Virus record (IMG/VR): IMGVR_UViG_3300037584_001746
Span: 1 to 50,890 of that record
DNA length: 50,890 nucleotides
DNA from: a virus
Lineage: Duplodnaviria; Caudoviricetes
Direction: 5' to 3' (one strand)
The notes under the pieces are model-generated. The model saw only the letters and a list, made by a program, of their open reading frames with translations, ran no database searches and had not been told where the DNA came from. Of the stretch, positions 17,607 to 40,021 are shown piece by piece (position 1 is the first letter of the stretch; the number at the start of each line of letters is the position of its first letter). A program made the translations under genes and the position numbers.

Positions 17607-17786
17607 TTATACTCCTATCAACTGTTGTACTGTGAAGCAATGTCCTTCTTTTTGCCATATACTTGTATCTATACTGACGCAACCAAGTACAGCGTTTATT
17701 ATAATCCATTCAAAAAACAAGATAGCAAAGAAACATAATACTAAGATACTGAAAATTTTAATTGGTTTTATTAGGTAAATAGCCAT
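17607..17786 (-). CDS. Small membrane protein (59 aa); not in ORF track
   Basis: MAIYLIKPIKIFSILVLCFFAILFFEWIIINAVLGC...; ACGGAGG RBS. Confidence 0.65.
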   Translation of the reverse strand: MAIYLIKPIKIFSILVLCFFAILFFEWIIINAVLGCVSIDTSIWQKEGHCFTVQQLIGV

Positions 17787-17800
17787 TATAACCTCCGTTA

Positions 17801-17971
17801 TTAATGATACGTTCCAACGGCAAAAGGGTCAAATTGCAGTTCAACAATCTTGACGTTATCTATCTCTAAAGATTTTTTGTGCCAGTGATCTAGTACTTTT
17901 TTTGCGGCCTCTTTGTGTTCCGTTTTACACACAAACACCGCCTCATTTTTATAGTAAACAGCGATATACAT
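17801..17971 (-). CDS. Hypothetical protein (56 aa); not in ORF track
   Basis: MYIAVYYKNEAVFVCKTEHKEAAKK...; CACGGAG RBS. Confidence 0.65.
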   Translation of the reverse strand: MYIAVYYKNEAVFVCKTEHKEAAKKVLDHWHKKSLEIDNVKIVELQFDPFAVGTYH

Positions 17972-17987
17972 TTGAATCTCCGTGAAT

Positions 17988-18012
17988 AAAAAAGAGGGGC
18001 AAAATGCCCCTC
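17988..18012 (-). terminator. Intrinsic terminator
   Basis: Minus strand GAGGGGC-atttt-GCCCCTC plus T-run just after the 18019 stop. Confidence 0.7.
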
Positions 18013-18018
18013 AGTATA

Positions 18019-18900
18019 TCATGCCGCAATAAGCTTGGTGTTTTCCCAACTTGGCTTTGCCAATACTTCGCTTATCATTGAATCTCTTGCCTTAGATGTA
18101 TTATGTGGCTTTAAAGTATCTTCTGTATGTGATGCCCAATATGTCATGGCGTTATATAAAGCCCATTTGTTTTTGCCCAATTTATTAGAATCATCATCCC
18201 AAAGCCTCATCAATGTATTAAGGCGAGACTCATTCCATCTAATTGTAGATGTTTTGCTCTTTACATTGCAAAGGGTGGCTTTAAAAAAATCCTCAGCCAT
18301 CTGTCTAGATACAGGTGTTTTCATCCACTCTTGCCACATTTCTTTTTTCTTAAAGAAGGCATCAACACCAGCAGTTATTTTAGATGCGGAAGCTTCTACC
18401 GATATGCCCTTTGTATGTTTAGAAATTGTTTCGGCTATTGTATCTGTATCGGCGCAACCATTTTTACACCATAGACGAAACCCTCTGGCTGATTGCTGAA
18501 ACGACCAAGAGCCATCGTATGAATTGTAAAATAGAACCTGAAACCTCACATAATCGCCAACATCTGGCTCAATGACCAAATCATTAAACAAGATACTACC
18601 TCGCATTTTTGCGCCATCTTCTAAAACATCAATTTTACAATCCATGTCTTTAGATACCTTTGCGTCTGCGACAGCATCCAGTATACTGTTCACCACATCG
18701 TCATGCTTTATGGCGGTATATTTAGACCCATGCACACCTAAGACCTTATTGGTGTCCGTTCTAACGATAGCCCTAGACATCTGTGGTGGAACCTCGACAT
18801 CTGGTTTGTTTTCTGTTTCAGAAACCGCCCATAGATTATAGGTGTCAACTGGAAAGTCCCATTCATTTTTCAAAATATTGATATTGCCGTCCATTTTCAT
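18019..18900 (-). CDS. DUF932-family protein
   Basis: AIVRTDT...LGV...Y...NSYDGS...FRLWCKNG...KHT...WALYNAMT. Confidence 0.8.
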   Translation of the reverse strand: MKMDGNINILKNEWDFPVDTYNLWAVSETENKPDVEVPPQMSRAIVRTDTNKVLGVHGSKYTAIKHDDVVNSILDAVADAKVSKDMDCKIDVLEDGAKMRGSILFNDLVIEPDVGDYVRFQVLFYNSYDGSWSFQQSARGFRLWCKNGCADTDTIAETISKHTKGISVEASASKITAGVDAFFKKKEMWQEWMKTPVSRQMAEDFFKATLCNVKSKTSTIRWNESRLNTLMRLWDDDSNKLGKNKWALYNAMTYWASHTEDTLKPHNTSKARDSMISEVLAKPSWENTKLIAA

Positions 18901-18918
18901 CTCCTTATGGTCGCCTGA

Positions 18919-19104
18919 TTAAACGTCATTCATTTGAATGGCGCGTCTTAAAACTCTGTTTCTTTCTGATTGTGATAGTTCAGAAATTACATTGAGAACC
19001 TTGATTGCATATCTACGCTCATGTTGAGCAGTAAATGTCTTGGTTCTTGGTTTTTTCAGCCCTAGCTTTTTTAGGGTTTCTGAATCAAGTTCTTCTATAT
19101 TCAT
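18919..19104 (-). CDS. Hypothetical protein
   Basis: 61 aa; ACGGAGGCGACC-ATG leader. Confidence 0.75.
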   Translation of the reverse strand: MNIEELDSETLKKLGLKKPRTKTFTAQHERRYAIKVLNVISELSQSERNRVLRRAIQMNDV

Positions 19105-19133
19105 GGTCGCCTCCGTAAATAGAGACTGAGGGC

Positions 19134-19427
19134 TTATGCCCCCAGCCTTTCAAAACCAATAGGTTTAACAACAAAACATTGACCAATATCTGTGCGAATA
19201 ACATCGCCAACAGAAACGCTGTGCATTTTTTGGTGTCTGGTGATTTGTGATTCTAGTCCGATATTGCTAATCTCAAAAACCTCATCAAGGTTTGATGCCT
19301 CAATATCTGCAACAACTTCGTAATTTGCAAGAAAGTGAATTGGGCATAAATCGCCCATTATTCTGGCGTCAAGATTTTCTTTAGCCAATTTATCGCCTTT
19401 GGTATTTTGAAGGATTTGATATTTCAT
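19134..19427 (-). CDS. YodL-like protein
   Basis: LDEVFEISN...HSVSVGDVI...IGF; CCACGGAG RBS before ATG 19427. Confidence 0.7.
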   Translation of the reverse strand: MKYQILQNTKGDKLAKENLDARIMGDLCPIHFLANYEVVADIEASNLDEVFEISNIGLESQITRHQKMHSVSVGDVIRTDIGQCFVVKPIGFERLGA

Positions 19428-19461
19428 TTTTTTCTCCGTGGTTTGGTCTTTCAATATAGTT

Positions 19462-19490
19462 AGACTACTCTTTCTGTTTTCATATGTCAA
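19462..19490 (-). promoter_or_regulatory. Sigma70-like leftward promoter P1
   Basis: TTGACA-17-TAGTCT; spacer begins TATGAAAACA as in P3/P4. Confidence 0.75.
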
Positions 19491-19515
19491 CAATATTAGT
19501 TAAAAAATGTTAAAT

Positions 19516-19541
19516 AAAAAAAGAGAGCCGAAGCCCTCTTT
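19516..19541 (-). terminator. Intrinsic terminator
   Basis: Minus strand AAGAGGGC-TTCG-GCTCTCTT plus T-run. Confidence 0.8.
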
Positions 19542-19543
19542 CT

Positions 19544-19837
19544 CTATTGTCTTGCCAAATGATGCAGTATTGAAAGGTTGTTGTTAGAGCCAAAGTCATC
19601 AAGAACGCTATGACCTCTGCCAGCTAAACACCTTGCCACAGCCTTATGATTTGCGGGGAATATTGCATAGTCAATTTGCTTTGCTAATTCACGACATTCC
19701 ATCAAATCTCTTTGGAATAATTGCGCTTCATCTTGGGATGCCCTCAAGTCAACGACAGGGCTGTAACTACAAGAGGTTAAAAACCCAAGACAGAAAGAAG
19801 CAAACCAGAGAATTGTTAGAAATCGAAAAATATTCAT
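19544..19837 (-). CDS. Putative lipoprotein
   Basis: Signal peptide with LTSC lipobox; DLMEC...CLAGRGH. Confidence 0.7.
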   Translation of the reverse strand: MNIFRFLTILWFASFCLGFLTSCSYSPVVDLRASQDEAQLFQRDLMECRELAKQIDYAIFPANHKAVARCLAGRGHSVLDDFGSNNNLSILHHLARQ

Positions 19838-20058
19838 TGTCTTGCCCTCTCCATCTTATCAATGAATGTCTTGGCTTGCTCCATGGTCATCCATCTATAG
19901 GGCGTATGTTCTCCGCATATCATTACATCAAGTGGATCAACCCTATTTATGAAGCGGTGGGTTGCCTTGCGAATTCCTTCTTCATCCTCATGTTCAATCT
20001 CTGGCTTGTATATATAGCCTTTATGTGAATATTCGGGTGCATTATGCCAATTAATCAT
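19834..20058 (-). CDS. Hypothetical protein
   Basis: 74 aa; ACGGAG RBS; overlaps neighbours. Confidence 0.7.
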   Translation of the reverse strand: MINWHNAPEYSHKGYIYKPEIEHEDEEGIRKATHRFINRVDPLDVMICGEHTPYRWMTMEQAKTFIDKMERARQ

Positions 20059-20263
20059 TTTGGTCTCCGTTGGTTTTTATCTTTGGAGTGAATTGAGCGG
20101 ACATTGCCAATATTAATTTTTCAATCCGTGGGTTTATTATTCGCCTACCATTTTCAAAATTAGAAATCGTAGACCTATCCTCATACCCGAGAAGTAAAGC
20201 CAGATCGTTCTGGCTCAGCCCCATATTAGATCGGATATTACGAAATTCGTTAGGTGTCATCAT
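20051..20263 (-). CDS. XRE-family helix-turn-helix protein
   Basis: IRSNMGLSQNDLALLLG...TISNFENGRR. Confidence 0.85.
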   Translation of the reverse strand: MMTPNEFRNIRSNMGLSQNDLALLLGYEDRSTISNFENGRRIINPRIEKLILAMSAQFTPKIKTNGDQND

Positions 20264-20457
20264 TAGGTTATACCTTCCTCGTCATAAATTTTTTGACGAT
20301 CATAAATTATATTTTCAACCAGTCCGATAAATTTACTGAGGGTAACGGTTTCGTCCCAAGATAAACCCATGAGTTGTGTTTGCACGTTTTCTGGCTCTGG
20401 ATTCATCACAATATTTGAAACAGCATTTTGTAGTTTTTCGGTTGTCCATTTGGTCAT
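20263..20457 (-). CDS. Hypothetical protein
   Basis: 64 aa; ACGGAGGC RBS; first gene after P2. Confidence 0.7.
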   Translation of the reverse strand: MTKWTTEKLQNAVSNIVMNPEPENVQTQLMGLSWDETVTLSKFIGLVENIIYDRQKIYDEEGIT

Positions 20458-20487
20458 TTTAGGCCTCCGTTAGTTTCTATAGAAAAC

Positions 20488-20516
20488 AAACTATACACAA
20501 TGTTTTCTAATGTCAA
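20488..20516 (-). promoter_or_regulatory. Sigma70-like leftward promoter P2
   Basis: TTGACA-17-TAGTTT; spacer TTAGAAAACATT similar to P1/P3/P4. Confidence 0.7.
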
Positions 20517-20582
20517 CATATGGAGCAAAAAAATAATTCTAAAAATGACCTCTCCGATGAGAGGCCAAGTTAAGGGAGGAAA

Positions 20583-20816
20583 TCACAGTGTATCAGATTC
20601 GATCATGTTAGATAATCGTTTTGTTTCTTGTACGGCTTCCTCTTTCATTGTTTCTATGTGGTCATCTAAATCTTGGATATCCCAAACAATGCGCCTTTCG
20701 CTTATTCTAATGGGTTGTGGCAATTTATTTTGAGATACAAGTTTTGTAAATAAAGATGTTCCCATGCCTAGATACTCTGAGGCGGCTGTTTTGGTGATCA
20801 ATCGCTTTGCGTACAT
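20583..20816 (-). CDS. AlpA/excisionase-like HTH protein
   Basis: ASEYLGM...LPQPIRISERRIVW. Confidence 0.8.
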   Translation of the reverse strand: MYAKRLITKTAASEYLGMGTSLFTKLVSQNKLPQPIRISERRIVWDIQDLDDHIETMKEEAVQETKRLSNMIESDTL

Positions 20817-20830
20817 AATTTTTACCTCCG

Positions 20831-21154
20831 TTAAATTTTAATCGCTCTATGGTTCGCAGAAAAACTGCGCCAAGCCTCAATTTTGGCCTCTGCCGCGACC
20901 CTTAAAAATCTATTGTGTTCGTCTCGTTCAACGGCAATTTTTATTGCCTCAAGATGTTCAAGATATCGCGGATCAGAATAAGCCTCACGTTCTTGTGCGC
21001 CTATAGATAGGCCAGCGTGCTCCTTCATTATCATAGACTTCAGTGATTTTCTAAATTCGTCTAAATAAATTCTATTGGCTTTTGACTGCGCGGCATCTCT
21101 GGCACTGTCTCTTAGAAAATCAATCGCTTTTTCAACATCATTATCTGTGATCAT
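20831..21154 (-). CDS. Conserved phage coiled-coil protein
   Basis: AQEREAYSDPRY...IEAWRS..AN.R. Confidence 0.7.
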   Translation of the reverse strand: MITDNDVEKAIDFLRDSARDAAQSKANRIYLDEFRKSLKSMIMKEHAGLSIGAQEREAYSDPRYLEHLEAIKIAVERDEHNRFLRVAAEAKIEAWRSFSANHRAIKI

Positions 21155-21520
21155 TCATTCCTCCTCATCGTCATTATGAGGGCTTTGTTTCCAATATCTT
21201 TGGGCGGTTACCTTTCCGTAATCTGCAAATCCCATTGTTTCTTCAAAAAAAGCAAATTCATTGCCTCGCTTATGAAGCATTATGTGGTGTCGCTGACATA
21301 ACGGAATGAGGTTGCGGTCTGTTGCCTTTAGCCCCATCCCTCTTACACCGTCCCAAGGTTTCATAAGGTGATGCGCTTGCACCGACCCAAGACAGTCTCC
21401 AGAGGCCTGTAAACAGCATGGAAACGTGTGTATATAATCCATGTGTTTTTTATTTACGTAACGCTTTGGCTTAATGCGAGATTTTAACCTCATGCGTCCG
21501 AGTTTTTTTGTGTTTTTCAT
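21155..21520 (-). CDS. DUF968/Ref-like HNH-type nuclease
   Basis: PCC...AHH...GMGLKA.D..LIPLCQRHH..LH. Confidence 0.8.
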   Translation of the reverse strand: MKNTKKLGRMRLKSRIKPKRYVNKKHMDYIHTFPCCLQASGDCLGSVQAHHLMKPWDGVRGMGLKATDRNLIPLCQRHHIMLHKRGNEFAFFEETMGFADYGKVTAQRYWKQSPHNDDEEE

Positions 21521-21522
21521 AA

Positions 21523-21927
21523 TTAAAACGGAATATCATCATCTAGGTCATCAACCTTCTTTTCTATCTGCTTCGTTTCGGGCTTATCTTCTTTTGGCTT
21601 GGCTGGGGCAACACTGACTCTGGTATATGGATTATTGTTTTTGTCCAGCCTCTTGTAACACCACATCATCAGCCTTTCTAAACCAACCATGATTTCGCCA
21701 GAAAGATTATAGCCATGCTTTTCTGTGATTTCTTTATTTACATAAAGACCGCCAGCTTTAACCCACCCCTCAAATATTTCTATTGAATTACCATCTTTGT
21801 CTTTAGATTGAGTTTTGGTAATCAACATTTCGTTTTTGAAACCTTCAATGTCAACATCTCCTTTTCTTACCACTTCGGTATTGGCGGCAGAAAAAAGATT
21901 GCCAGAATTTTCGTATTTGTTACTCAT
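21523..21927 (-). CDS. Putative single-stranded DNA-binding protein
   Basis: NSGNLF start; acidic tail DDLDDDIPF; recombination context. Confidence 0.7.
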   Translation of the reverse strand: MSNKYENSGNLFSAANTEVVRKGDVDIEGFKNEMLITKTQSKDKDGNSIEIFEGWVKAGGLYVNKEITEKHGYNLSGEIMVGLERLMMWCYKRLDKNNNPYTRVSVAPAKPKEDKPETKQIEKKVDDLDDDIPF

Positions 21928-22181
21928 ATGAGATTCTCCTGTCGTGGATCGTGGGTCAGGGGCTTCCATGTAATATCTACAAGCTGATATGAACCCCCAA
22001 ACTTAGATTGGTGATTTTGACCAGTGGGTTTTAATGCTTTCAATTCATCAACTGAAAGCTCCATGATTTGTTCTTTATGAAATAAACGCAAACCGCCTTT
22101 CTTAATTGCGGCTTGCACTTCATAATCACGCACCGAAACAAATCGCCCCTTCCAAAGTTTATTGACTTGCTTGGTTTTCAT
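21924..22181 (-). CDS. Hypothetical protein
   Basis: 85 aa, coupled to neighbours. Confidence 0.7.
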   Translation of the reverse strand: MKTKQVNKLWKGRFVSVRDYEVQAAIKKGGLRLFHKEQIMELSVDELKALKPTGQNHQSKFGGSYQLVDITWKPLTHDPRQENLI

Positions 22182-22647
22182 TTGTGATTTCCCTTGTCGT
22201 TATTTCTGGCTCTTTATAAGAACCTTCGTACATCTGCTTGCCTAAACCAAAAAGTGAAAGGCATTTAACCATACACCGCATTTTAGAATCACTGATATCT
22301 CTGGCATCGGGATTGGTTACTGCATCATGTTTGTAATTCGTTACCGCAAGCCACATATTTCTGCTAACGCCATTTATTGTTATTGTGCAATGAACGCTAC
22401 AACATTCATTAGGGTAATACATAACATCGTAGACTTTCCCACCACGATCGAATCGCTCAAATTCAATCTCGTAATCAGGGTAATGCTCTGCCAAAATTCT
22501 CAAGGCTACAGACCATTTCAGATAGAATAATTTTGTTACTTCTCCAGTTTGCCTATTTTTGGCTTCATTGAAAGAAACATCATTTGGATCAAATTCTATA
22601 TTAGAGAATGTTTCCCAAATTTGTTTATAAATTAATTGTTTAGTCAT
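22159..22647 (-). CDS. Single-strand annealing recombinase (Sak3/DUF1071-like)
   Basis: YLKWS.A...MWLAVTNYKH...DISDSKMRCMVKCLSLFGLG. Confidence 0.8.
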   Translation of the reverse strand: MTKQLIYKQIWETFSNIEFDPNDVSFNEAKNRQTGEVTKLFYLKWSVALRILAEHYPDYEIEFERFDRGGKVYDVMYYPNECCSVHCTITINGVSRNMWLAVTNYKHDAVTNPDARDISDSKMRCMVKCLSLFGLGKQMYEGSYKEPEITTREITNENQASQ

Positions 22648-23404
22648 TGGTCGCCTCCATGCTCCAAAGGGTTTTTGCGATTTCTCGCTCGTTATCTGAC
22701 CATTTCCAATGGTCAAGATCGGGATATACAAGCTGACAACATTCAATGATATCGTTGCTGTAAGATAAAATTCTTTCTAAGGCTTTAGCCGCAATGGTGA
22801 ATTGATGTATGTGATAATTGACATTTTGTATTTCAAAACTGGTAACGCCTTTTTTAGATATGTAATCAATTACTGGCACTCTTTTTAATGCGTGTCCGTA
22901 AATTGATCCTTGTCTTGCGTGAGCGAATGATAATTTGCTAACAGCATTGCCTGTTTTCATATCACGAACCTTTTCACCCAATCTTAAATCGTAATAACCA
23001 ATTATTGGTACAGGTATGTCTGGCAACATAACCGTTACTTTGCCTTGTGCGGATTCGTATGGCTCTGATAATTCGGTATAATATTCTTTTGCAGATTTTA
23101 TGAACGCCTCAAGGTCGCCTCGTTCTTTTTTTAGCTTGGCTTCTGGCTGTTCATTTTTTGATTGTTTTGATTCGAGGTCAAATAAGCGTTGCGCTTCTGA
23201 TGTTAAATCGTCAAGTTTAAGGTCAGGGTTTTGCATCCATCTGGTTATGGTTTTATCAACCGCTGTTCCGCGCCATGCAGATGCGCCAACACCGCCATCT
23301 AATTTCCCAGCAATCTTCATTAAGCATCTGGCGGGTTGTTCTATGAACAGATTAATGGTGCTTGCAGATAAGTGCATAACATCATGGTTTTCAAAATGGT
23401 TCAT
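22640..23404 (-). CDS. PD-(D/E)XK exonuclease
   Basis: HLSASTIN...RGTAV...IGYYD...DMKT...Q..IY. Confidence 0.85.
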   Translation of the reverse strand: MNHFENHDVMHLSASTINLFIEQPARCLMKIAGKLDGGVGASAWRGTAVDKTITRWMQNPDLKLDDLTSEAQRLFDLESKQSKNEQPEAKLKKERGDLEAFIKSAKEYYTELSEPYESAQGKVTVMLPDIPVPIIGYYDLRLGEKVRDMKTGNAVSKLSFAHARQGSIYGHALKRVPVIDYISKKGVTSFEIQNVNYHIHQFTIAAKALERILSYSNDIIECCQLVYPDLDHWKWSDNEREIAKTLWSMEATND

Positions 23405-23476
23405 GGTCGCCTCTAAAGTTATCTAATAATCGTTATAGTAATTAAATAACCTATAAAGTAAACCCCAATTTGGGAT

Positions 23477-25156: not shown

Positions 25157-25615
25157 TTATCTTACCACGGAGTTGGCGGTTTGTTCTTCTTCATCATCTG
25201 GCAAATATTTGCGTTGCCCGATTGGTGCAAAAATCCATTTTCCAGAATTATCTTTCGGATTTTCAGCATAACATTTATTGCAGTACCATTGACCTTCAGA
25301 ATATACAGCCAAGAACAATTCGCCTATAGTTTGAGGCGCACCACCACAGCATCTACATGGGTCGCCATGCCAAGTGTACCAATAATGGCTTCCTTGGTTT
25401 TCAGTGCCAATATGGTCTTTGAACCCATGAAGTATCATTGTTCGTGTTTTTGAAGAATGGTCTAGTTCTCGTCTGATTTGTGTGAATCTCTTGAAGTCTT
25501 TTTTTAATTCAGCATGAGTTTTGTTACAGCATAAACACCTATTCTGATGAACCTTTTTCCCATCTACAATTTTGAACCATTCACCCTTATGGTTATTAAG
25601 TGCCGTATTCATCAT
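25157..25615 (-). CDS. Cysteine-rich hypothetical protein
   Basis: CLCC, CRCC and CNKC motifs. Confidence 0.7.
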   Translation of the reverse strand: MMNTALNNHKGEWFKIVDGKKVHQNRCLCCNKTHAELKKDFKRFTQIRRELDHSSKTRTMILHGFKDHIGTENQGSHYWYTWHGDPCRCCGGAPQTIGELFLAVYSEGQWYCNKCYAENPKDNSGKWIFAPIGQRKYLPDDEEEQTANSVVR

Positions 25616-26231: not shown

Positions 26232-26245
26232 TTTGGTCTCCGTGG

Positions 26246-26416: not shown

Positions 26417-26451
26417 TTTAGTCTCCGTGGTTTGGTTCAATCAATATATAT

Positions 26452-26479
26452 ATATTACCATAATGTTTTCATATGTCAA
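26452..26479 (-). promoter_or_regulatory. Sigma70-like leftward promoter P3
   Basis: TTGACA-16-TAATAT with TGn extension; 29 bp identical to P4. Confidence 0.75.
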
Positions 26480-31537: not shown

Positions 31538-32411
31538 TCCGCAATTTCCCTTATACATCCCATCAAAGGGAAGGGCAGATAGCAGATTAACTGCAAAGGC
31601 ACTAGATTCAATGCAGGTGCCATATCGCCTTGTGATAGAAGAACAAGAATACAAAGACTATTTAGAGCATGTAGATAAAGATAAGCTACTTATTTTAGAT
31701 AAAAAATTTCAAGATGAATACGATACCTGTGATGACCTTGGCGCAACTCGTAGCAAGGGACCAGGAGCCGCGCGAAACTTTATTTGGGAACATGCGATTT
31801 CTGAGGGGCACGCTTGGCATTGGGTGATGGACGACAACATCAAGTCGTTTCGCAGATGGAGAGATAACAAGCGCATCAAGTGCTATGATGGAACGCCATT
31901 CAAGGCTATGGAAGATTTTGTGCTTCGCTACAAGAATGTTGCTATGGCGGGTCCGAATTATATGTTCTTTGTTGTAGACAAGTGGGCAAAAGATTACGGA
32001 CCATTCACAGTCAACACCAGAATTTACTCATGCAATCTAATCCGTAATGATGTTCCTTTCAGATGGAGGGGCAGATATAACGAAGATACAGACCTATCGC
32101 TTCAGATGCTAAAGGCTAAATGGTGTACAATACAGTTCAATGCCTTTCTGCAAGAAAAAGCAAATACCCAAACTGTTAAGGGCGGTAATACACAAGAATT
32201 TTACGCCAAAGAGGGAACCGCGCCAAAATCTGCAATGCAAATGAGGCTTCACCCAGATGTAAGTAAAATGGTATGGCGATATGGTAGACCTCATCATCAT
32301 GTGAACTACAATAAATTCAAAAAAGAAAATCGGCTAATACTGAAAGATGATTACGTTGTAAAACAGGGAGTTAATGAATACGGAATGAAATTAAAAACCA
32401 TAAGGTCGTAA
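31530..32411 (+). CDS. GT-A glycosyltransferase, TET-associated/GREB1-like family
   Basis: YIPSKGRA...ARN...WVMDDNI...RIYSCNLI...YNEDTDL...KGGN. Confidence 0.8.
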   Translation: MNNPQFPLYIPSKGRADSRLTAKALDSMQVPYRLVIEEQEYKDYLEHVDKDKLLILDKKFQDEYDTCDDLGATRSKGPGAARNFIWEHAISEGHAWHWVMDDNIKSFRRWRDNKRIKCYDGTPFKAMEDFVLRYKNVAMAGPNYMFFVVDKWAKDYGPFTVNTRIYSCNLIRNDVPFRWRGRYNEDTDLSLQMLKAKWCTIQFNAFLQEKANTQTVKGGNTQEFYAKEGTAPKSAMQMRLHPDVSKMVWRYGRPHHHVNYNKFKKENRLILKDDYVVKQGVNEYGMKLKTIRS

Positions 32412-32445
32412 ATAATTTCCGTGGTATATTAAAAAGGGCAAAAAA

Positions 32446-32874
32446 ATGGCTAATAAAGTTGGTAGACCTAAGAAAAAAACAAATCAAGTTAAGGAAAAAA
32501 ACCCTGTTGGTCGACCCAAAATCGAAATCAACCTTGATGAGCTTGAAAGATTGAGTGCGTTGAATTGCACGATGCCAGAATTGGCGGCTTATTTTAGAGT
32601 GCCGTTAAGAACCCTTGAAGATAAATATACAAACGACCCAGAGATCAGGGCTACAATAAATCGTGGCAGAGAGGTCGGTAAGTTATCTGTAAGACGTAAA
32701 CAAATGCAGATTATGAACGATATGAATAGTACAGCCATGGCAATCTGGTTAGGCAAACAGCTACTTGGTCAAAGGGATAAGCATGATGTGATTACTGAAG
32801 ACAGGGGAGAAACAGCCTTAAATGAAGCCTTTTCTGTTGTTGCAGATTTGGTGAGGAGTAAAAAAAGTGACTGA
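32446..32874 (+). CDS. terS: Terminase small subunit
   Basis: GRPK...HTH...SVRRKQ...MAIWLGKQLLGQ; upstream of terL. Confidence 0.75.
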   Translation: MANKVGRPKKKTNQVKEKNPVGRPKIEINLDELERLSALNCTMPELAAYFRVPLRTLEDKYTNDPEIRATINRGREVGKLSVRRKQMQIMNDMNSTAMAIWLGKQLLGQRDKHDVITEDRGETALNEAFSVVADLVRSKKSD

Positions 32875-33148
32875 CCAAAATATGTTTGATTGGACATTAA
32901 GTTATCTCTCAAGCGTGGCGGGAGAATTTACCGCGTTATCAGATTCGGCTAATATATTTAGCTGGCAAGGTAGGGGAGAAAATTATTGGCTGAATCTAAT
33001 CAAAGACGATGATGGAGACCCTCATGTTATGATTTATGCTTGTGCTGACCCCAGTAATTTACTTTTCTCAGTTATCGGATATTGTGTCTATCACGATATA
33101 AATTTTGAAATTGATGATAGTTTGCCTAAAGCAAAGTACCAAGCATGA
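32867..33148 (+). CDS. Hypothetical protein between terS and terL
   Basis: 93 aa, overlaps both neighbours. Confidence 0.65.
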   Translation: MTDQNMFDWTLSYLSSVAGEFTALSDSANIFSWQGRGENYWLNLIKDDDGDPHVMIYACADPSNLLFSVIGYCVYHDINFEIDDSLPKAKYQA

Positions 33149-34455
33149 ATTTTCAAGTTGCAAAACAAGATAAACTGCAATATTTGCAAAAATTATCTAG
33201 TTCATTCGTTGATGAAGAAAGCCATGCCTTTAACAGCTTTGTAAAATGGGCAAAGTCAGCTCGACAAAAACAAATAGCACCTGATGGTAATTGGTCAATT
33301 TGGCTGATATTGGCTGGTCGCGGATGGGGTAAAACCAGAACAGGGGCAGAAGATATTTGTGCATTTGCGATGGCAAATTCAAACGTCAGGTGTGGTGTTG
33401 TTGCTCCAACAAGGGGAGATTTAAGGCGGGTCTGTTTTGAGGGACCGTCTGGATTATTAACTTGCATACCAAAAGAGTGTTTATGGCAAGGCGATGGGAA
33501 TGCGTACAATCGCTCTGCAATGGAAATAAGGTTATGGAATGGCTCTATCATTCAGGGCTATGCCGCAATAGAACCAGACCGCCTACGTGGTCCACAGTTT
33601 CATCGTATATGGGCAGATGAATTGGCGGCTTGGAGATATCCAGAGGCTTATGATCAAATGATGTTTGGTTTACGCCTTGGGGAAAAGCCGCAACTCATAA
33701 TTACCACAACACCAAGACCCACTAAAATAATAAGCAACCTTGTCAGTCGAAAACACAAAGATGTATACCTTACCAGTGGCAACACGTTTGAAAACCATGA
33801 GAATTTAGCGCAGTCTGCATTAGACCAGTTAAAAGAAAGATACGATGGAACTAGATTGGGCAGACAAGAGCTTTATGCAGAATTGCTTGAAGATATTGAA
33901 GGCGCATTATGGTCGTATAGGCGTTTAGATGAAACAAGAATAACAAAAGACGAAATGCCAGACTTAAATAGAATTGTTGTGGCTATTGATCCAGCCGTTA
34001 CAAACAATGAAGATTCAGACGAGACTGGTATAATTGTTGCTGGAAAGGCAAACAATCAAAGGTACTATGTAATCGACGATGTTTCTGGTAGGATGACTCC
34101 TGATGGCTGGGGTCGTACGGCTATAGAGATGTTTTATAAGTATCAAGCCGATAGGATTGTGGCAGAGGTTAATAATGGTGGCGATTTAGTAGAAAGGCTG
34201 TTAAGAAATATTGATCAGAACGTGCCTTATACCCCTGTTAGAGCGTCAAGAGGTAAGTTGGTGAGGGCAGAGCCAATAGCGGCTTTATATGAACAGAGCA
34301 GGGTTTCTCATGTTGGCGCGTTCAAGCAATTAGAAGAACAATTATGTTCGTTTTCGGCTGGGAGTAGTAAATCACCCGATAGACTTGATGCCTTAGTCTG
34401 GGCGTTGACAGAACTGAGCCAATCCAGTGGGACGGCTACTTGGAGAATTTCATAA
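33145..34455 (+). CDS. terL: Terminase large subunit
   Basis: AGRGWGKT; LRGPQF; WADE; TTTP; VAIDPA; SPDRLDA. Confidence 0.95.
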   Translation: MNFQVAKQDKLQYLQKLSSSFVDEESHAFNSFVKWAKSARQKQIAPDGNWSIWLILAGRGWGKTRTGAEDICAFAMANSNVRCGVVAPTRGDLRRVCFEGPSGLLTCIPKECLWQGDGNAYNRSAMEIRLWNGSIIQGYAAIEPDRLRGPQFHRIWADELAAWRYPEAYDQMMFGLRLGEKPQLIITTTPRPTKIISNLVSRKHKDVYLTSGNTFENHENLAQSALDQLKERYDGTRLGRQELYAELLEDIEGALWSYRRLDETRITKDEMPDLNRIVVAIDPAVTNNEDSDETGIIVAGKANNQRYYVIDDVSGRMTPDGWGRTAIEMFYKYQADRIVAEVNNGGDLVERLLRNIDQNVPYTPVRASRGKLVRAEPIAALYEQSRVSHVGAFKQLEEQLCSFSAGSSKSPDRLDALVWALTELSQSSGTATWRIS

Positions 34456-36848
34456 TGGCTGGCATCAAAGATTTTTTCAAATTTTTACAACGTGACACAA
34501 TAGAGATAAAAGAAGCTCCACAAGTTGTATTAAGCGTGAATAACGCTCACCATTATCGCAAAGATAATTATGAGGCTTACGCAGACGAAGGCTATAGGCA
34601 AAATGCTGTAGTGTATCGTTGCATTAACGAGATAGCCAATGGCGCGGCTTGCATCCCATTCAAGTTATTTCAGGGTGACGATGAATTAGATCAGCACCCA
34701 TTGCTGGCATTGTTGAAAAGGCCAAACCCATCACAAGCGGGTGTTGAGTATTTCCAAGCTGTATATTCGTATTTGTTGTTATCTGGAAATAATTACGCCA
34801 TTCGATCTGATGTAGGCGGTGAGGTGCGAGAACTTTATCTTTTGCGTCCAGATCGTGTGAGAGTGAAGCCATCCAAAACCTCAACCCCAGAAGCCTATGA
34901 GTATGTTCTTGGCGGCAAGGTGGTCAAAACATATGATGCAGACCCAATCACAGGGGAATCTGAAGTTAAGCATATGAAGCTGTATAATCCGTTAGATGAT
35001 TATTATGGGTTATCGCCTCTTATGGCGGCGGCAGTAGATATTGATAATCATAACGCCATCAATAAGCATAATATCAGCTTATTAAACAATGGCGCAAGAC
35101 CAAGCGGTGCTATCGTATTCAAGCCACAAAGTGACAGGGGCTTACCAATACAGTTATCGGATGGGCAACGCCAACAATTAAGGGATGATTTGAATGTCAA
35201 ATATACTGGCGCGGCTAATGCGGGAAAGCCGTTATTACTGGAAGGTGATTTTGATTGGCGTGAAATGGGTCTTACACCTAAAGACATGGATTTTCTGCAA
35301 CAGAGAAACATGGCGGCAAAGGATATCGCTCTTTGTTTTGGGGTGCCAAGTCAACTTATTGGCATACCAGACGCGCAGACGTATGCGAATGTCCAAGAAG
35401 CGCGGCTAGCTCTTTACGAGGAAACAATAATGCCGCTAGCCCGACGGGTGCAGTCTGATTTGAATGAATGGTTGGCTCCTGTATATGGTGAAGAAATACG
35501 AATAGAGTATGATTTTGAAGCAGTGCCAGCAATGGTTGAAAGAAGGCGGCGAATATACGAAAACGTCACTCAAGCAGTAAGAGAAGGGATTATTTCAAGG
35601 AATGAGGCAAGAGAGCGTTTAGGTCTTGAGCCAATACAGGGAGGTGATGATGTCTATATCGCGGCTAATCTTTTTCCTCTGGGAAGCACAGAAGCCGAAC
35701 CAACCCAAGGACAGGAGGCTGAACAGGATGCGGAAAAAGCTTACGGAATTATTGACGAAAGCAAAGCGAAAGTTGCAAAGGATGTATTTACAACTGAAAG
35801 TGAGGCTCAAGCTAGGGCTGAAGAAATAGGCTGTTTCGGTACTCACTTCCATGATACAGACAACGGCAAGGTGTATATGCCTTGCGCCAGTCATGCGGAC
35901 TACAGAAGGCTCACAGGCACAGATTTAACAACACCAAAGCAATCAAAAGAACGTGTAGCTCGTGATGTATTTACAACAGAAGACGAGGCCGCAGAAAGAG
36001 CTGAAGAAATTGGATGTTTTGGCACTCATTTTCACGATACCGATAACGGCAGGGTATTTATGCCATGTGCCAGCCATGCAGATTATAGACGTTTGGTTGG
36101 CGAAGATTTAGAAACTCCAAAGCAAGATGAGGAACTCGGTGATGATGCGAAGGCGGAATCAGATGTTGATACAACGCCAACTGACGCAATGGCGAAAGAG
36201 GCTGAACGCGGTCTTGCCATGCGCAAAGAGTTCAACCGAGGGGGAACAGAAGTCGGTGTCGCAAGAGCAGTCCAGCTTGTCTCCAAAGAAAGATTGTCGC
36301 CTAGAACGGTAAGGCGAATGCACAGTTTTTTTAGCCGCCATGAGGTAGATAAAAGAGCCGAAGGTTTCCGCCGAGGTGAAGAAGGTTATCCAAGCGCAGG
36401 GAAAATCGCTTGGCTGTTATGGGGTGGCGATGCTGGTCAAACATGGGCTAGGCGTACAGCCGCAAAGTTAGACAAAGAACGTGATGGTAAAAATGATATA
36501 TTAGAGGACATTCAGCCAATTGATAATCATTTTGAAGAAAAGGCTGTAAAAATAAGCGAATCTGTAAAAAAAGGGTTAGCAAAAAAAGTAAAAGAACATA
36601 ACGATAAGCATGGTGACAAAAAAGGTAAGCGCGTTACATTGCGTATGCTTTCTGCTGTATTCCGTAGAGGTGTTGGAGCATATAATACAAATCCATCATC
36701 TGTTAGACCAAGCGTCTCAAGTTCCGATCAATGGGCATATGCAAGGGTAAACGTATTTTTAGGGGCGGTGCGAACTGGTAGATTTAAGCGTGCCAAGTTT
36801 GATACTGACCTTTTACCGAAAGGTCACCCTCTCAGAACAGGCGATTGA
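34455..36848 (+). CDS. HK97-family portal protein with long C-terminal extension
   Basis: VYRCI...LLSGNNY...LRPDRV...YGLSP...NGARPSG...FGVP...SRNEAR; ~380 extra aa. Confidence 0.92.
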   Translation: MAGIKDFFKFLQRDTIEIKEAPQVVLSVNNAHHYRKDNYEAYADEGYRQNAVVYRCINEIANGAACIPFKLFQGDDELDQHPLLALLKRPNPSQAGVEYFQAVYSYLLLSGNNYAIRSDVGGEVRELYLLRPDRVRVKPSKTSTPEAYEYVLGGKVVKTYDADPITGESEVKHMKLYNPLDDYYGLSPLMAAAVDIDNHNAINKHNISLLNNGARPSGAIVFKPQSDRGLPIQLSDGQRQQLRDDLNVKYTGAANAGKPLLLEGDFDWREMGLTPKDMDFLQQRNMAAKDIALCFGVPSQLIGIPDAQTYANVQEARLALYEETIMPLARRVQSDLNEWLAPVYGEEIRIEYDFEAVPAMVERRRRIYENVTQAVREGIISRNEARERLGLEPIQGGDDVYIAANLFPLGSTEAEPTQGQEAEQDAEKAYGIIDESKAKVAKDVFTTESEAQARAEEIGCFGTHFHDTDNGKVYMPCASHADYRRLTGTDLTTPKQSKERVARDVFTTEDEAAERAEEIGCFGTHFHDTDNGRVFMPCASHADYRRLVGEDLETPKQDEELGDDAKAESDVDTTPTDAMAKEAERGLAMRKEFNRGGTEVGVARAVQLVSKERLSPRTVRRMHSFFSRHEVDKRAEGFRRGEEGYPSAGKIAWLLWGGDAGQTWARRTAAKLDKERDGKNDILEDIQPIDNHFEEKAVKISESVKKGLAKKVKEHNDKHGDKKGKRVTLRMLSAVFRRGVGAYNTNPSSVRPSVSSSDQWAYARVNVFLGAVRTGRFKRAKFDTDLLPKGHPLRTGD
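35772..36125 (+). repeat. Two tandem Cys/His repeats (183-nt period) in the portal tail
   Basis: DVFTTE.EA..RAEEIGCFGTHFHDTDNG.V.MPCASHADYRRL twice. Confidence 0.9.
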
Positions 36849-38458
36849 TGACAAAATCGCAAAAATCACCCTCGTATACTGATGTGCCAGCACCCTTTAA
36901 AAGCGGTCAGGTAAAATCATACCCAAGCATTCAGAACAAAACCACACGAAGAAAGGTTAGTGCCAGAAAAGAATTTATAGAGCAGAACAGATTGCGCTTG
37001 GGGTTTGAACGTAAACTGCGTATGCAGATTCAAAATGTATTTCGTGATGCTGGTAAAAATGCTGAAAAAGAATTTGTTGAATCAGGTAGATTGATTGCGA
37101 CAGATAGAGATTTAGAAAAAGATACCAAGGCAGTATTAGACAGTCATTATAGGGCTGTCATTGAAGCATTTGGTTTACGAATTTTGCGTGATCAAAAACA
37201 AGAAAGTCAGTTTGAAAATATTATTAGAAATTATATACGAGACTTTGGAGCGATCAGAGTAGTGCAAATTAGCAATACTACCATGAACCAAATTAACAGG
37301 GTTGTTCAGCAAGGTTTACAAGAAGGTCTAGGGGTTGCTCAAATAGGCAAAAATATACGTGAATCTACAGACAGTCCTTTTAGTCGTTACAGAGCAAATA
37401 CAATAGCAAGAACAGAGACACATTCTGCCGCCAGCTATGGAAACCATGCCATAAATGCAAGCCTCAATATCCCAAATCAAATGAAACGATGGGTGGCTGT
37501 GGCAGATGCAAGGGCAAGAGCAACTCATGTTGCCGCCAATGGCACAGAAATCCCTCTTGATGAAGATTTCATCGTGGGCGGTGTCCCCATGGGATATACT
37601 GGTGACCCAAGAGGTGGCGCAGCTAATGTTATAAACTGTCGCTGTGTAACTCTTTATGTAAGCCCAGAAGATGAGGTATTCGTAGATGACAAGCCGCCAA
37701 CACAAGAGGTGAGGGGCAAGCTAGATATTGCAAGCACGCTATCTGTATCCTCGCCAAAGATACGACAACAGTATAATGAAAAGCTAAATGATAATCTGTC
37801 TGGTTTAGCATTGGCGGCAGCAATTAAATTGCCAAAGCCAAACACCATCAAGAAATCAAAAAGAGGCTTTTATCAGAGAGAGACTATGCTTATTTCCTCT
37901 GATTTAGAATCTAATACCTTAGAGCATGAATATGGGCATCATGTCGATTTTATAGCATCAAAGAAAATGCGGTACTTGTCGCAACAAGATAAGGGCTTCC
38001 AAAGGGCATTTATTGACGATGCCAAATCTTTAGGCTTGGCAGTCGAGGGAACGGATTTTGATGATATGTTAGGCTTTAGATTAGGCGCAGACACTAAGCC
38101 AAAACTTGAAACGCTTAGAGAGCGATTTTTAGAGAAGGTGGAAAAAACAAAAATATATAAAAGAGGCAGAAGAAAAGGTATGTCATTCCAGTATCAAGCG
38201 TGGTCACCGCGATACGATGGTGCAAATTCTATATCAGATATAATTGATGCGATGACCAAGGGTAGTTTCTTCACTGATTTTAGCGCGTGGGGTCATGGTA
38301 GAAATTATTATAAAAGGTCAGGGTCGTTTTATTACGAAACATTTGCTAATCTGTTTGCTATACACGGAAATAAAAAAGCAATGAATGAAGCGCGAAAGCT
38401 ATTCCCCAATTTGGTAAGAGAATTTGAAAGAATGTTGAAAGAGATAGCAGATGGATGA
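36848..38458 (+). CDS. MuF/SPP1 gp7-like minor head protein with C-terminal HExxH domain
   Basis: RANTIARTE...KRW...R..H...INCRC, then EHEYGHHVD...ETFAN. Confidence 0.85.
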   Translation: MTKSQKSPSYTDVPAPFKSGQVKSYPSIQNKTTRRKVSARKEFIEQNRLRLGFERKLRMQIQNVFRDAGKNAEKEFVESGRLIATDRDLEKDTKAVLDSHYRAVIEAFGLRILRDQKQESQFENIIRNYIRDFGAIRVVQISNTTMNQINRVVQQGLQEGLGVAQIGKNIRESTDSPFSRYRANTIARTETHSAASYGNHAINASLNIPNQMKRWVAVADARARATHVAANGTEIPLDEDFIVGGVPMGYTGDPRGGAANVINCRCVTLYVSPEDEVFVDDKPPTQEVRGKLDIASTLSVSSPKIRQQYNEKLNDNLSGLALAAAIKLPKPNTIKKSKRGFYQRETMLISSDLESNTLEHEYGHHVDFIASKKMRYLSQQDKGFQRAFIDDAKSLGLAVEGTDFDDMLGFRLGADTKPKLETLRERFLEKVEKTKIYKRGRRKGMSFQYQAWSPRYDGANSISDIIDAMTKGSFFTDFSAWGHGRNYYKRSGSFYYETFANLFAIHGNKKAMNEARKLFPNLVREFERMLKEIADG

Positions 38459-38654
38459 TGCTGAACTAATGAGACGAATGCAATTGGCTGTGTCAACAGA
38501 CGATTGGTTAAGTTTATACAAAGAGGTCTTCAAAGAAGAACCCCAACTCTCTGGTGAGAACTGGGGTGATTTTCCAATTGAAAAAGTGATTGATGCCTTG
38601 GCGTTCAAAAGGCCTATCAGAGAAAAGCCTATGCCAGATTCAAGGGTTGCATAA
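38451..38654 (+). CDS. Small protein coupled to MuF gene (immunity candidate)
   Basis: 67 aa; start overlaps MuF stop. Confidence 0.6.
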   Translation: MDDAELMRRMQLAVSTDDWLSLYKEVFKEEPQLSGENWGDFPIEKVIDALAFKRPIREKPMPDSRVA

Positions 38655-38655
38655 T

Positions 38656-38832
38656 CTAGCCAAATTCTGGGTGAGATGGCGGCTCTGCCAATACAAAGCC
38701 CATTTCTGTCATTTTTTGCCTAATAGATATATCAATATCACTCATTGACCTCGCCCCTTCTCTGATTGATTCTTGATATGCCTTGTCGTAGGCGGCTTTT
38801 ACGACATCTTTATTTTGTTCTGTAAAATACAT
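38656..38832 (-). CDS. Hypothetical protein (58 aa); not in ORF track
   Basis: MYFTEQNKDVVKAAYDKAYQESIREG...HPEFG*; GGAGG RBS. Confidence 0.6.
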   Translation of the reverse strand: MYFTEQNKDVVKAAYDKAYQESIREGARSMSDIDISIRQKMTEMGFVLAEPPSHPEFG

Positions 38833-39342
38833 TTAATCCTCCCTAAATGGTCTTTGTGTTGCACCAGCATGGTCTTTGTCAAATACCTTGCGTCCGTTAT
38901 TCCAGCCGAACGGTATACCCACACCTTCTTCTGTTTCTCTATTCACAGGAATCCATAGATGGTATTGGTTAGCCATATCGTGTTCACGAAATCTGGCTGG
39001 GTATATCATCAATGCCTCAAACTCACTGCCCACCAGAGCATCTTTTATGTCCATAAGGTCACGATAATCCATAATTGGCTGTTTATCTCTGCGTTTTATG
39101 GATAGATGAATAACCTTGATTGATGGGTCTGGGGTCAATGCGCCATTTTTCTCACTGTCCCAATCAATAGCCACCTGATAAATGTCATTAACTCTGATGT
39201 CATCATTCTTGGCGGCATAATAGGAATTTATGAGTTGTTTGCGGGTTGGTCTTGGTTTGACCTTCTGCATTGCCTTCATCATATCAGCAAGCCAATCTTT
39301 CATCGGTGGCATATTTGGCTGAACTTTGTTAAACGGCTTCAT
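38833..39342 (-). CDS. Conserved phage hypothetical protein
   Basis: HLSIKRRD...DLMDIKD...EALMIYP...NQYHLW. Confidence 0.75.
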   Translation of the reverse strand: MKPFNKVQPNMPPMKDWLADMMKAMQKVKPRPTRKQLINSYYAAKNDDIRVNDIYQVAIDWDSEKNGALTPDPSIKVIHLSIKRRDKQPIMDYRDLMDIKDALVGSEFEALMIYPARFREHDMANQYHLWIPVNRETEEGVGIPFGWNNGRKVFDKDHAGATQRPFRED

Positions 39343-39520
39343 CTCTTACCTCTTTTCGTACCTGATAAGAACCGCCATCTACATGGCTGATGTCTCCAGA
39401 GCCGCGTGAGATAGAGAATGTGGTGTATTCTTTAACAAAGCCAAGATATTCGTAGCCGTGATTATCGGCAAAATATCTGGCGCATCTTTCATTACGAAAT
39501 CTAAGTATTTGTTCGGTCAT
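39329..39520 (-). CDS. Hypothetical protein
   Basis: 63 aa; CCACGGAGGCGACC-ATG leader. Confidence 0.75.
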   Translation of the reverse strand: MTEQILRFRNERCARYFADNHGYEYLGFVKEYTTFSISRGSGDISHVDGGSYQVRKEVRDEAV

Positions 39521-39535
39521 GGTCGCCTCCGTGGT

Positions 39536-39625
39536 CTAAAGAAAAAATAAAATTGGCAAAGAGCAGAACATAGCCATGCCCATAATGCCGATTAAGATTT
39601 TCAAGATGATTGTAAATGTCTGCAT
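39536..39625 (-). CDS. 29-aa hydrophobic peptide; not in ORF track
   Basis: MQTFTIILKILIGIMGMAMFCSLPILFFL*; CGGAGG RBS. Confidence 0.6.
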   Translation of the reverse strand: MQTFTIILKILIGIMGMAMFCSLPILFFL

Positions 39626-39653
39626 TTTTACCTCCGCAGGGTGGGCGGGGCTG

Positions 39654-39983
39654 TTAAGCCGCCGCCTTTCTGATCTCGTTGAATGTATCAAAGCTGATTG
39701 CAATAGAAATCATGGGCAAAAAGCCTTTGCGCGGGTCTGTCATTGTGTCGTATTGGTCAGTGATCAAAGAACCTTTTTTAATCAGGCTTGAGATGACACC
39801 TCTGAAAATTTTAGGGTCAAGATCATTTTTTGAAAATATTGTACCGCATTGACCAGAGCCATCGGTTGTCAATTCGTATGTATCAATGTGTGGTGAGTTA
39901 TCATCATCTTCAGTATCCCATTGTGAGCCATGATTGTCGGCTAGGATGTTCAGAATTTTCATTTCGTTTTCTGTGTAAGTCAT
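39654..39983 (-). CDS. Hypothetical protein, possible winged helix
   Basis: MTYTENEMKIL...RGVISSLIKKG; CCACGGAG RBS. Confidence 0.7.
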   Translation of the reverse strand: MTYTENEMKILNILADNHGSQWDTEDDDNSPHIDTYELTTDGSGQCGTIFSKNDLDPKIFRGVISSLIKKGSLITDQYDTMTDPRKGFLPMISIAISFDTFNEIRKAAA

Positions 39984-40021
39984 TGGTCTCTCCGTGGTTT
40001 AATTAATCATTCAATATAATC

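Follow-up and report, generated by a model that had tools for sequence, protein, structure and literature searches.

Extended ribosome-binding sites of an early-gene set in a tailed-phage genome are complementary to candidate phage-encoded small RNAs

Early genes of the virus described here carry extended ribosome-binding sites (RBSs), and the same genome contains two elements that could be transcribed into small RNAs (sRNAs) complementary to them. The virus is IMG/VR record IMGVR_UViG_3300037584_001746 (Caudoviricetes); the window analysed is the whole record of 50,890 bases, which CheckV rates as complete. Two blocks, ACCACGGAG(G) and AGGCGACCA(AACCA), extend the Shine-Dalgarno (SD) region in many of its early leaders. 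The original prediction took them for RNA-level target sites defining an early regulon, a view now supported by the conservation of the blocks, by the matching RNAs and by word-complement pairs in related phages. We propose, at a probability of roughly 0.6, that the blocks turn early RBSs into complements of phage-encoded anti-RBS RNAs that repress an early-gene set. The candidate RNAs are sRNA-A, a putative independent sRNA within the rightward replication operon, and element B, a hairpin at the 3' end of a leftward early operon. The relatives of the window are uncultured marine phages. Three serve for close comparison: R1 (two overlapping IMG/VR contigs, identical in the overlap, with 75-91% identity to the window), R2 (a 4.7-kb contig) and R3 (a metagenome contig with 80-87% identity to the window).

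Early leaders and two complementary RNAs

Fifteen block-bearing strings next to minus-strand gene starts, together with a flipped copy at 26897-26918 for a plus-strand gene, had been reported, and all 16 were found in place; the string at 39631 is present, but amounts to CGGAGG ahead of an open reading frame (ORF) of 29 amino acids (39625-39536). Counted on both strands against a second-order Markov background, ACCACGGAG occurs 7 times (0.10 expected), AGGCGACCA 7 times (0.25 expected) and ACGGAG 21 times (6.2 expected). The blocks were said to mark early rather than virion genes, and a direct comparison bears this out, with blocks in 15/40 early and 1/41 late leaders (Fisher p = 5.4e-5). Scored as ACGGAG or GGCGACC between positions -25 and -1, they are found in 14/26 leftward early leaders, 1/14 rightward early/replication leaders (that of the gene at 26924) and 1/41 late/structural leaders (14111). 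Structural leaders had been described as using a plain SD sequence, which holds for 26 of the 41 late leaders; one late leader, at 14097, reads ACGGAGG. We rejected this leader as a target: ACGGAGG is not kept in R1, and because R1 reads differently there we treat the motif as chance.

The orientation of the blocks, which was claimed always to follow the mRNA, does so for 16 of 18 copies. The two that do not, at 30752-30780 and 25164-25172, belong to the two candidate RNAs. Each has a copy of the ACCACGGAG 9-mer that opposes local transcription, and the two strongest terminators follow these two copies at a distance of at most 35 nt. All four leftward promoters are true repeats (TGTTGACATWWGAAAACA, 4 copies versus 0 expected). 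As predicted, the set takes in the first gene after each of them, with a ACCACGGAG leader at three and ACGGAGG at one, and three of these four promoter-proximal leaders share one entire duplicated promoter-leader cassette. The remaining block-bearing leaders lie within operons or directly after terminators.

The candidate sRNA-A (~95 nt, + strand, 30738-30832) lies in a 190-nt gap between the rightward genes 30152-30700 and 30890-31537. A promoter scan places a putative sigma-70-type promoter just upstream, at 30704-30731 (+), with TAGACA, a 16-nt spacer and an extended -10 element, TG-n-TAATAT. Downstream of it come a 5' hairpin (GCAATC/GATTGC), a core and an intrinsic terminator (30795-30822, +; a 12-bp stem followed by a U tract) that ranks second-best in the 17-33 kb region. 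On the + strand, 30752-30780 is the reverse complement of both blocks, and the core at 30754-30784 is antisense to ACCACGGAG(G) and AGGCGACCAAACCA. The predicted fold (-39.3 kcal/mol, z = -4.1 to -4.6) consists of the 5' hairpin, a weaker middle hairpin whose apical loop holds the anti-AGGCGACCAAACCA segment, and the terminator. In the three genomes folded, the + strand (-39.3, -36 and -39 kcal/mol) was more stable than the - strand (-28.5, -22.6 and -31.4 kcal/mol) by 8-13 kcal/mol in every case.

sRNA-A is present in the window, R1, R2 and R3. Its 31-nt core is invariant in all four genomes, whereas 53.5% of the other columns are invariant; under naive independence a run of this length has an expectation of ~1e-6. 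TGnTAATAT and TAGACA are kept in 4/4 genomes, with a 5-nt insertion at 30707, within the -35 region, in the contig of one relative. The stem of the 5' hairpin is kept around a varying loop (GCAT, TAAG, TAGC, TAGC), and changes in the stems give G.U pairs on the + strand and A.C mismatches on the opposite strand. In R2 and R3 the terminator is replaced by an unrelated 14-bp hairpin with its own U tract. A same-strand promoter and a Rho-independent terminator, both conserved in relatives, are the anatomy of an independent sRNA gene.

Searching IMG/VR with a 21-nt stretch of the core returned solely R1 (two contigs) and R2, and by synteny the gap was absent from more distant relatives, in which the flanking genes abut or have other neighbours. 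Rfam gave no match to the window at gathering thresholds; for the region 30600-30950, with E values up to 10, it gave two weak unrelated hits, to sX14 (18.8 bits) and RAGATH-13 (16.6 bits), and no C4. The minus strand at 30747 was considered as an RBS with a 14-amino-acid ORF and rejected, the ATG being present in 1/4 genomes (the window only) and the codon changes being mostly non-synonymous. Separately, the linker word of the core, ACCATTCAC on the other strand, is over-represented (6 copies found, 0.6 expected, both strands), within coding regions, at 6070-, 13580+, 25576+, 28233-, 30769- and 32000+.

Element B (25181-25111, - strand) lies at the end of the operon that starts from promoter 26481-26464, the placement of a 3' untranslated region (3'UTR) anti-SD element, and overlaps the final codons of gene 25157-25615. 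Its predicted hairpin has a 7-bp stem and a 17-nt loop displaying CUCCGUGGU (25172-25164), and directly after it comes a terminator (25148-25117, 14 pairs) that is the strongest of those found in the region. The - strand folds at -38.1 kcal/mol and the + strand at -28.3 kcal/mol. One A>G change apart, the element is identical in R1 and R3, and that change leaves the basal pair of the stem as G.U.

The match between sRNA-A and the leaders follows gene class. Perfect complements of at least 7 nt between a leader (-30 to +6) and the 35-nt core region occur for 14/26 leftward early, 2/14 rightward early and 2/41 late leaders; at a threshold of at least 9 nt the counts are 9/26, 1/14 and 1/41. When windows were scanned along the + strand, those of sRNA-A matched the most leaders (13/28). 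Matches of at least 9 nt to the core outside leaders involve mostly the linker word ACCATTCAC and not the two blocks. RNAduplex run on 47 x 42-nt windows did not discriminate, with shuffled seeds reaching -12 kcal/mol on 22/26 leaders on average, so we relied on the longest perfect complementarity and on short-window duplexes. The short-window estimate has a median of -16.4 kcal/mol for 27 leftward early leaders versus -11.6 kcal/mol for 41 late ones.

Pairing with the 16S rRNA gives a different picture. The window contains no rRNA gene (16S included) and no tRNA gene, and the 16S tail used is a generic one that may not be the host's. For this tail the estimates are -6.6 kcal/mol with ACCACGGAGA leaders and ~-11.5 kcal/mol with GGAGGCGACC leaders; for sRNA-A they are -18 to -24 kcal/mol with ACCACGGAGA leaders, and -18 to -25 kcal/mol with the two kinds together. 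No complementarity of the extension to the 16S 3' end beyond CCUCC was seen with the generic tail, which need not be that of the host. The earlier statement that the 16S anti-SD explains the core of the sites but not their flanks thus stands against this generic tail and no further.

Conservation in near and distant relatives

Repeating the comparison in related genomes had been proposed as a check. Orthologues were sought for 13 motif-bearing leaders, and 10 comparisons covering 8 leaders were obtained in R1 and R3. Motif positions changed in 3/110 cases versus 48/203 for other leader positions (p = 2.6e-7). The AC prefix of GGAG was unchanged in 10/10 comparisons; spacers and linkers varied. 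Because the motif bases changed far less than neighbouring leader bases, those outside GGAG are, by this comparison, under purifying selection that extends beyond the SD core.

Of the three motif changes, two are the same C>T within AGGCGACCA, found in the 26924 leader of R1 as well as of R3, and the third is the loss of a trailing G from ACGGAGG. The C>T, C>U in the RNA, faces a G of sRNA-A, so that a G.U pair is kept. Just ahead of the sRNA-A core, the window and R2 have C where R1 and R3 have U, and ACGGAGA is the reading of more leaders in the latter two; two R1 leaders that correspond to ACGGAGG in the window read ACGGAGA and ACGGAGC. These leader and core-edge changes are compatible with pairing, but are too few to serve as proof of it.

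In more distant relatives, with 45-59% identity in the DUF932 protein, sRNA-A was not found. On the early-gene strand of 78 distant loci, none carried ACCACGGAG more than once and one (L075) carried a single AGGCGACCA. These phages have uniform early RBS words of their own, such as AAAGGAGAACT in L004 (9 leaders), GGAGAACC in L046 (6 leaders) and ACAAGGAGAACA in L062. We sampled 39 non-redundant loci with an ssb gene (C-terminal DD.IPF). In 12 of the 39, a perfect complement of 9-14 nt to the locus's own RBS word, followed by an intrinsic terminator, lies at most 130 nt past the ssb stop codon on the early-gene strand, a 3'UTR placement of the kind known from icaR (see below). The words so complemented include AAAGGAGAACT, GGAGAACCAAAA, ACAAGGAGAACA and GGAGATATGAA, and examples of the elements, all on the + strand, are L004 16079-16180, L031 8193-8290, L026 6354-6450, L046 15854-15950, L062 15828-15920 and L075 8097-8180. 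The other 27 ssb loci are without such an element; they include R1 and the window, in which the gene following ssb (21523-21969) abuts it. The window's ssb (- strand) encodes 148 amino acids ending in DDDIPF, with no Pfam or PHROGs family match; an acidic C-terminal tail is typical of single-strand DNA-binding proteins.

The complement follows the word. In 10/12 loci (the exceptions being L056 and L012) no other same-strand window, of 271-818 per locus, matches as many leaders as the ssb-3' element does. The base after GGAGAAC is T, C or A according to the group, and the complement has A, G or U accordingly in the three informative groups out of three. When elements were crossed with leaders, the own group was the best match in 4/6 motif groups (binomial p ~0.009, with 1/6 expected); L062 and L056/L053 were the groups for which this did not hold. 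For T-type and C-type elements, the complement is placed in the loop of a hairpin whose stem varies with compensating changes, for example GGCTTGG/CCAAGCC, GCTCGG/CCGAGC and GTTGGGGG/CCTCCAAC. On the opposite strand, a start codon at RBS distance is missing in 4/5 of the types inspected, and the elements are therefore not taken for RBSs of that strand. Rfam had no match for the L004 element. On this evidence the ssb-3' hairpins are a putative class of RNA element that is uncatalogued, and these relatives appear to supply the co-variation, with the complement changing in step with the RBS word.

Individual leaders and their genomic setting

PHROGs and Pfam scans give the window a siphovirus-like layout. 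Virion genes occupy 33145-48301 and 108-17068 (+). Three leftward blocks (-; 17030-23404, 25157-26822 and 38656-39983) hold small genes, mostly without a known family. The rightward replication block (+; 26924-33148) encodes an initiator with HTH_36/DnaD_N domains, a primase-helicase, a ParB_N protein and a TET-associated glycosyltransferase. Megablast found no match among cultured phages for the 17-40 kb region of the window, and the primase-helicase protein found no relative and no prophage when searched against one genome per prokaryote species. Against cultured phages, tblastn with the capsid and primase proteins gave identities no higher than 48%, to phages of mixed hosts.

Within the first leftward block, read from low to high coordinates on the - strand, ACGGAGG (17792-17798) precedes gene 17607-17786, and CACGGAG (17978-17984), directly after terminator 18012-17994, precedes gene 17801-17971. 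The DUF932 gene 18019-18894 has AAGGAG as its SD, with AGGCGACCA (18908-18916) upstream of it. The leader ACGGAGGCGACC-ATG (19104-19116) of gene 18919-19104 reads ACCACGGAGGCGACC in R1; ahead of the orthologue of that gene, the difference between R1 and the window falls precisely at the edge of the motif. The leader GACCAAACCACGGAG (19434-19448) belongs to gene 19134-19427, the first after promoter 19492-19475. ACGGAG (20065-20070) precedes gene 19834-20058; ACGGAGG (20464-20470) precedes gene 20263-20457, the first after promoter 20518-20501, and recurs at 20825-20831 ahead of gene 20583-20816. The block ends with AGGCGACCA-ATG (22647-22656) at gene 22159-22647, which encodes a Sak single-strand annealing protein, and AGGCGACC-ATG (23404-23412) at gene 22640-23404.

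In the second leftward block, ACCACGGAG (26238-26246, -) leads gene 25956-26231; R3 keeps the motif and spacer within a changed upstream context. ACCAAACCACGGAG (26423-26436, -) leads gene 26246-26416, the first after promoter 26481-26464, and in R3 an identical leader stands ahead of another gene. The 185 nt at 26236-26420, which hold gene 26246-26416, are missing in the relatives from three DNA runs (X4, X5 and X6; one contig each), and the junction falls in 12 common letters, the two copies of the ACCACGGAGAC.AAAATG leader. Between this promoter and the rightward initiator gene lies gene 26505-26822 (-), whose 105-amino-acid product has an NrdR-like zinc ribbon and is a candidate for regulating transcription of the divergent early region. 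The initiator gene itself (26924-27550, +; HTH_36/DnaD_N) has the compound leader TAGGCGACCAA-caat-ACGGAGG (26897-26918), which offers 11-nt and 7-nt complements to sRNA-A; the sequence in R1 and R3 is AGGTGACCAA, with the G.U pair noted above.

The third leftward set interrupts the rightward head genes, with head morphogenesis on one side and scaffold/capsid on the other. This early-type module (38656-40051) comprises a separate copy of the early promoter (40051-40034) along with four genes, a hydrophobic ORF of 29 amino acids and the same RBS code, and looks like a moron-like insertion. Its leaders (-) are ACCACGGAG (39990-39998) for gene 39654-39983, the first after the promoter; CGGAGG (39631-39636) ahead of the hydrophobic ORF; and ACCACGGAGGCGACC-ATG (39520-39535) for gene 39329-39520, with an 11-nt perfect complement to sRNA-A.

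Two further features were noted. A likely DNA-modification set, at 30152-32411 and 17030-17605, pairs a 2OG-Fe(II) oxygenase (17030-17605) with ParB_N (30890-31537) and the TET-associated glycosyltransferase (31530-32411; Pfam TAGT, E = 1.3e-45); it suggests glycosylated hydroxymethyl bases in the phage DNA. The commonest 9-mer of the genome, TGGCGGCAA, has 10 copies, 9 of them on the + strand, scattered across the virion genes (for example 6446, 11179, 15308, 34910, 35311, 40910, 41920, 47567 and 50728 on + and 37538 on -).

Mechanism, alternatives and known systems

We envisage the following course of events. By extending the SD region, ACCACGGAG(G) and AGGCGACCA(AACCA) would make early RBSs complementary to phage RNAs. 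sRNA-A, with a promoter and terminator of its own within the rightward replication operon, carries the antisense of both blocks in its invariant 31 nt; element B, at the 3' end of a leftward early operon, shows the antisense of ACCACGGAG in a loop before the terminator. As these RNAs accumulated they would pair across the SD and spacer of ~15 early messages, among them those of the rightward initiator gene and of the genes that come first behind the four leftward promoters; sRNA-A also matches the first gene of its own replication operon. Pairing would out-compete the 30S subunit and end early translation, perhaps inviting RNase III, and late genes with plain SDs would escape. That element B and the ssb-3' elements would be made from early transcripts suggests a self-limiting feedback.

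A wider version, to which we give slightly less than even odds, is that many uncultured marine tailed phages pair a lineage-private early RBS word with an exactly complementary small RNA, the two co-evolving, as a host-independent timer that ends the early phase at translation. The small RNA would then imitate the 3' end of 16S rRNA and add further bases to it; the window would use two blocks and two RNAs, and the relatives a loop-displayed complement in the ssb 3'UTR. If this is right, the early-to-late switch in a large environmental phage group is partly run by RNA pairing at RBSs, a switch so far attributed for the most part to proteins that act on transcription or, in the case of T4, on mRNA. 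The oddly uniform, lineage-specific RBS contexts of some phage genomes would be accounted for, and the matched word-RNA pairs of different lineages would be natural orthogonal translational switches. Full-text searching of the literature turned up no paper on a phage RNA directed against the RBSs of an entire set of early genes. Few sRNAs of virulent phages have been described; PMC4933390, of 2016, calls them almost unknown at that time and gives the band C and D RNAs of T4 as the sole earlier examples.

Several points weigh against repression by anti-RBS RNAs. All of the support is computational, with transcription, pairing in vivo, and the direction and timing of the effect being inferred, and the gene starts are heuristic ORF and SD calls, approximate and not annotation. 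Part of the block sharing reflects shared ancestry, through the duplicated promoter-leader unit, and motif edges coincide with gene gain or loss, from which it appears that recombination also shapes the pattern. The conservation of element B says little because the region is ~95% conserved and overlaps coding sequence. In the duplex model, which is a loose one, several late leaders also come out at -16 to -19 kcal/mol against the core, and these may be chance matches. The order of the blocks differs among leaders, so each leader would pair with part of sRNA-A only, and in the predicted fold part of the anti-ACCACGGAG segment is sequestered in an 8-bp stem. A sigma-70-type promoter would make sRNA-A early, which is awkward for a simple late shut-off. 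Lastly, within the window's clade co-variation comes down to one or two wobble-compatible changes, the core being identical in the four genomes.

Recombination could also be the whole explanation. The blocks would then belong to homogenised translation-initiation cassettes, recombined at gene borders and serving as efficient RBSs or as linkers, and the antisense copies would be functionless relics of inverted leaders. This would fit the relatives that lack 26236-26420, with a 12-nt junction made of the repeated leader; the different gene behind the 26416-type leader in R3; the departure of R1 from the window at the motif edge upstream of the 19104 orthologue; the uniform lineage-specific RBS words of related lineages; and the Sak annealing protein that the phage encodes (22159-22647). 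A relic should decay, yet the 31-nt core is invariant in four genomes at a background identity of ~80-87%; the start codon of the supposed relic is lost in 3/4 genomes, whilst promoter, hairpin and terminator are kept or functionally replaced. The arrangement of antisense and terminator recurs with other words in 12 loci, and cassette exchange explains the spread of sameness but not the selection on the AC prefix and the CGACCA bases. We regard it as unlikely to be the full account.

Less likely again is that a protein reads the blocks on the mRNA, either a repressor or endoribonuclease of the RegA/RegB kind or host CsrA/RsmA, with the antisense RNAs unrelated or acting as decoys. The motif overlaps the SD in mRNA orientation, there is an established precedent in T4 RegB, which cuts GGAG in early SDs, and CACGGAGG resembles CANGGANG, which we take to be the CsrA/RsmA consensus. 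An RNA-binding protein could also hide among the small early proteins, 14/20 of which have no PHROGs match. No match to the RegA, RegB, CsrA or Hfq families was found in the proteins scanned, namely 20 early/replication proteins with Pfam and 30 proteins with PHROGs (20 small early plus 10 mostly structural), with ~8 small proteins outside the scans. CsrA would leave AGGCGACCA unexplained, and a protein reader predicts no complementary copies in hairpin loops beside terminators.

We think it very unlikely that the blocks act as sites on the DNA, for example operators or iterons bound by the HTH (helix-turn-helix) initiator or by some other DNA-binding protein, with 30752-30780 as part of the replication origin. 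The gap at 30700-30890 does lie in the replication module beside an A+T-rich stretch, TGGT occurs three times in the core, and ACCATTCAC is over-represented on both strands (6 versus 0.6 expected). Against this, 16/18 copies are mRNA-oriented and lie 5-8 nt ahead of start codons within operons, not at promoters; the stem substitutions are G.U-compatible on one strand only; the sRNA-A terminator has been exchanged for another hairpin; and the C>T in the rep leader alters a DNA site but keeps the RNA pair. Longer pairing with an unusual host 16S rRNA 3' end, one complementary to ACCACGGAGG or AGGCGACCA, is open to argument in that the tail compared was generic and may not be the host's, but it seems highly improbable: late genes use plain AGGAG/GGAGG (plain SD in 26/41, block in 1/41), the ACCACGGAGA leaders reach only -6.6 kcal/mol with the generic tail, related phages have quite different extensions, and the 16S 3' end is, to our knowledge, nearly invariant across bacteria.

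Amongst known systems, repression by anti-RBS RNAs comes close to four. Bacterial trans-acting sRNAs arise from a promoter of their own or from a 3'UTR, pair through a short seed at the RBS and end in a Rho-independent terminator. The candidates here share the promoter or 3'UTR origin, the short seed and the terminator hairpin with a U tail; unlike bacterial sRNAs, their targets would be the early-gene set of their own genome, and their seed imitates the 16S anti-SD plus the bases of the private extension. T4 RegB and RegA reportedly shut off early genes post-transcriptionally. As there, features in and around early SDs would be recognised and a whole temporal class turned off; RegB and RegA are proteins, whereas the reader proposed here is an RNA, and no homologue of either was found among the proteins scanned.

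The closest of the four, the c4 RNA of phages P1 and P7, is, in the passages of PMC12197685 that deal with it, a 77-nt trans-acting antisense RNA whose loop segments pair around the RBS. Like c4 as portrayed there, sRNA-A would be a small phage RNA with loop-displayed segments complementary to the RBS region of phage messages, and the complementary blocks are short (~7-11 nt) rather than a long antisense overlap; segments of 7-11 nt match the RBS region of 14/26 leftward early leaders and of the 26924 leader. The c4 RNA, by the same passages, acts on one operon (icd-ant) as an immunity factor of temperate phages, whereas the window's RNA matches ~15 early leaders. Neither the window nor the sRNA-A locus matched the Rfam covariance model for C4. 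Integrase, antirepressor and CI-type repressor families had no match among the proteins scanned (20 with Pfam, 30 with PHROGs, not all ORFs), the regulators found there being a small HTH regulator and an excisionase-like HTH protein only.

In Staphylococcus aureus, according to the part of PMC3868564 that treats it, the 3'UTR of icaR mRNA carries an anti-SD motif, UCCCCUG, that pairs with the mRNA's own SD. Element B and the ssb-3' elements likewise place an anti-SD at the 3' end of a transcript bearing the matched SDs, and pairing would likewise block initiation and could create an RNase III substrate. The icaR case as set out there concerns one bacterial gene, self-pairing and a generic motif, whereas the complement in the phages reaches into a lineage-specific word shared by many genes.

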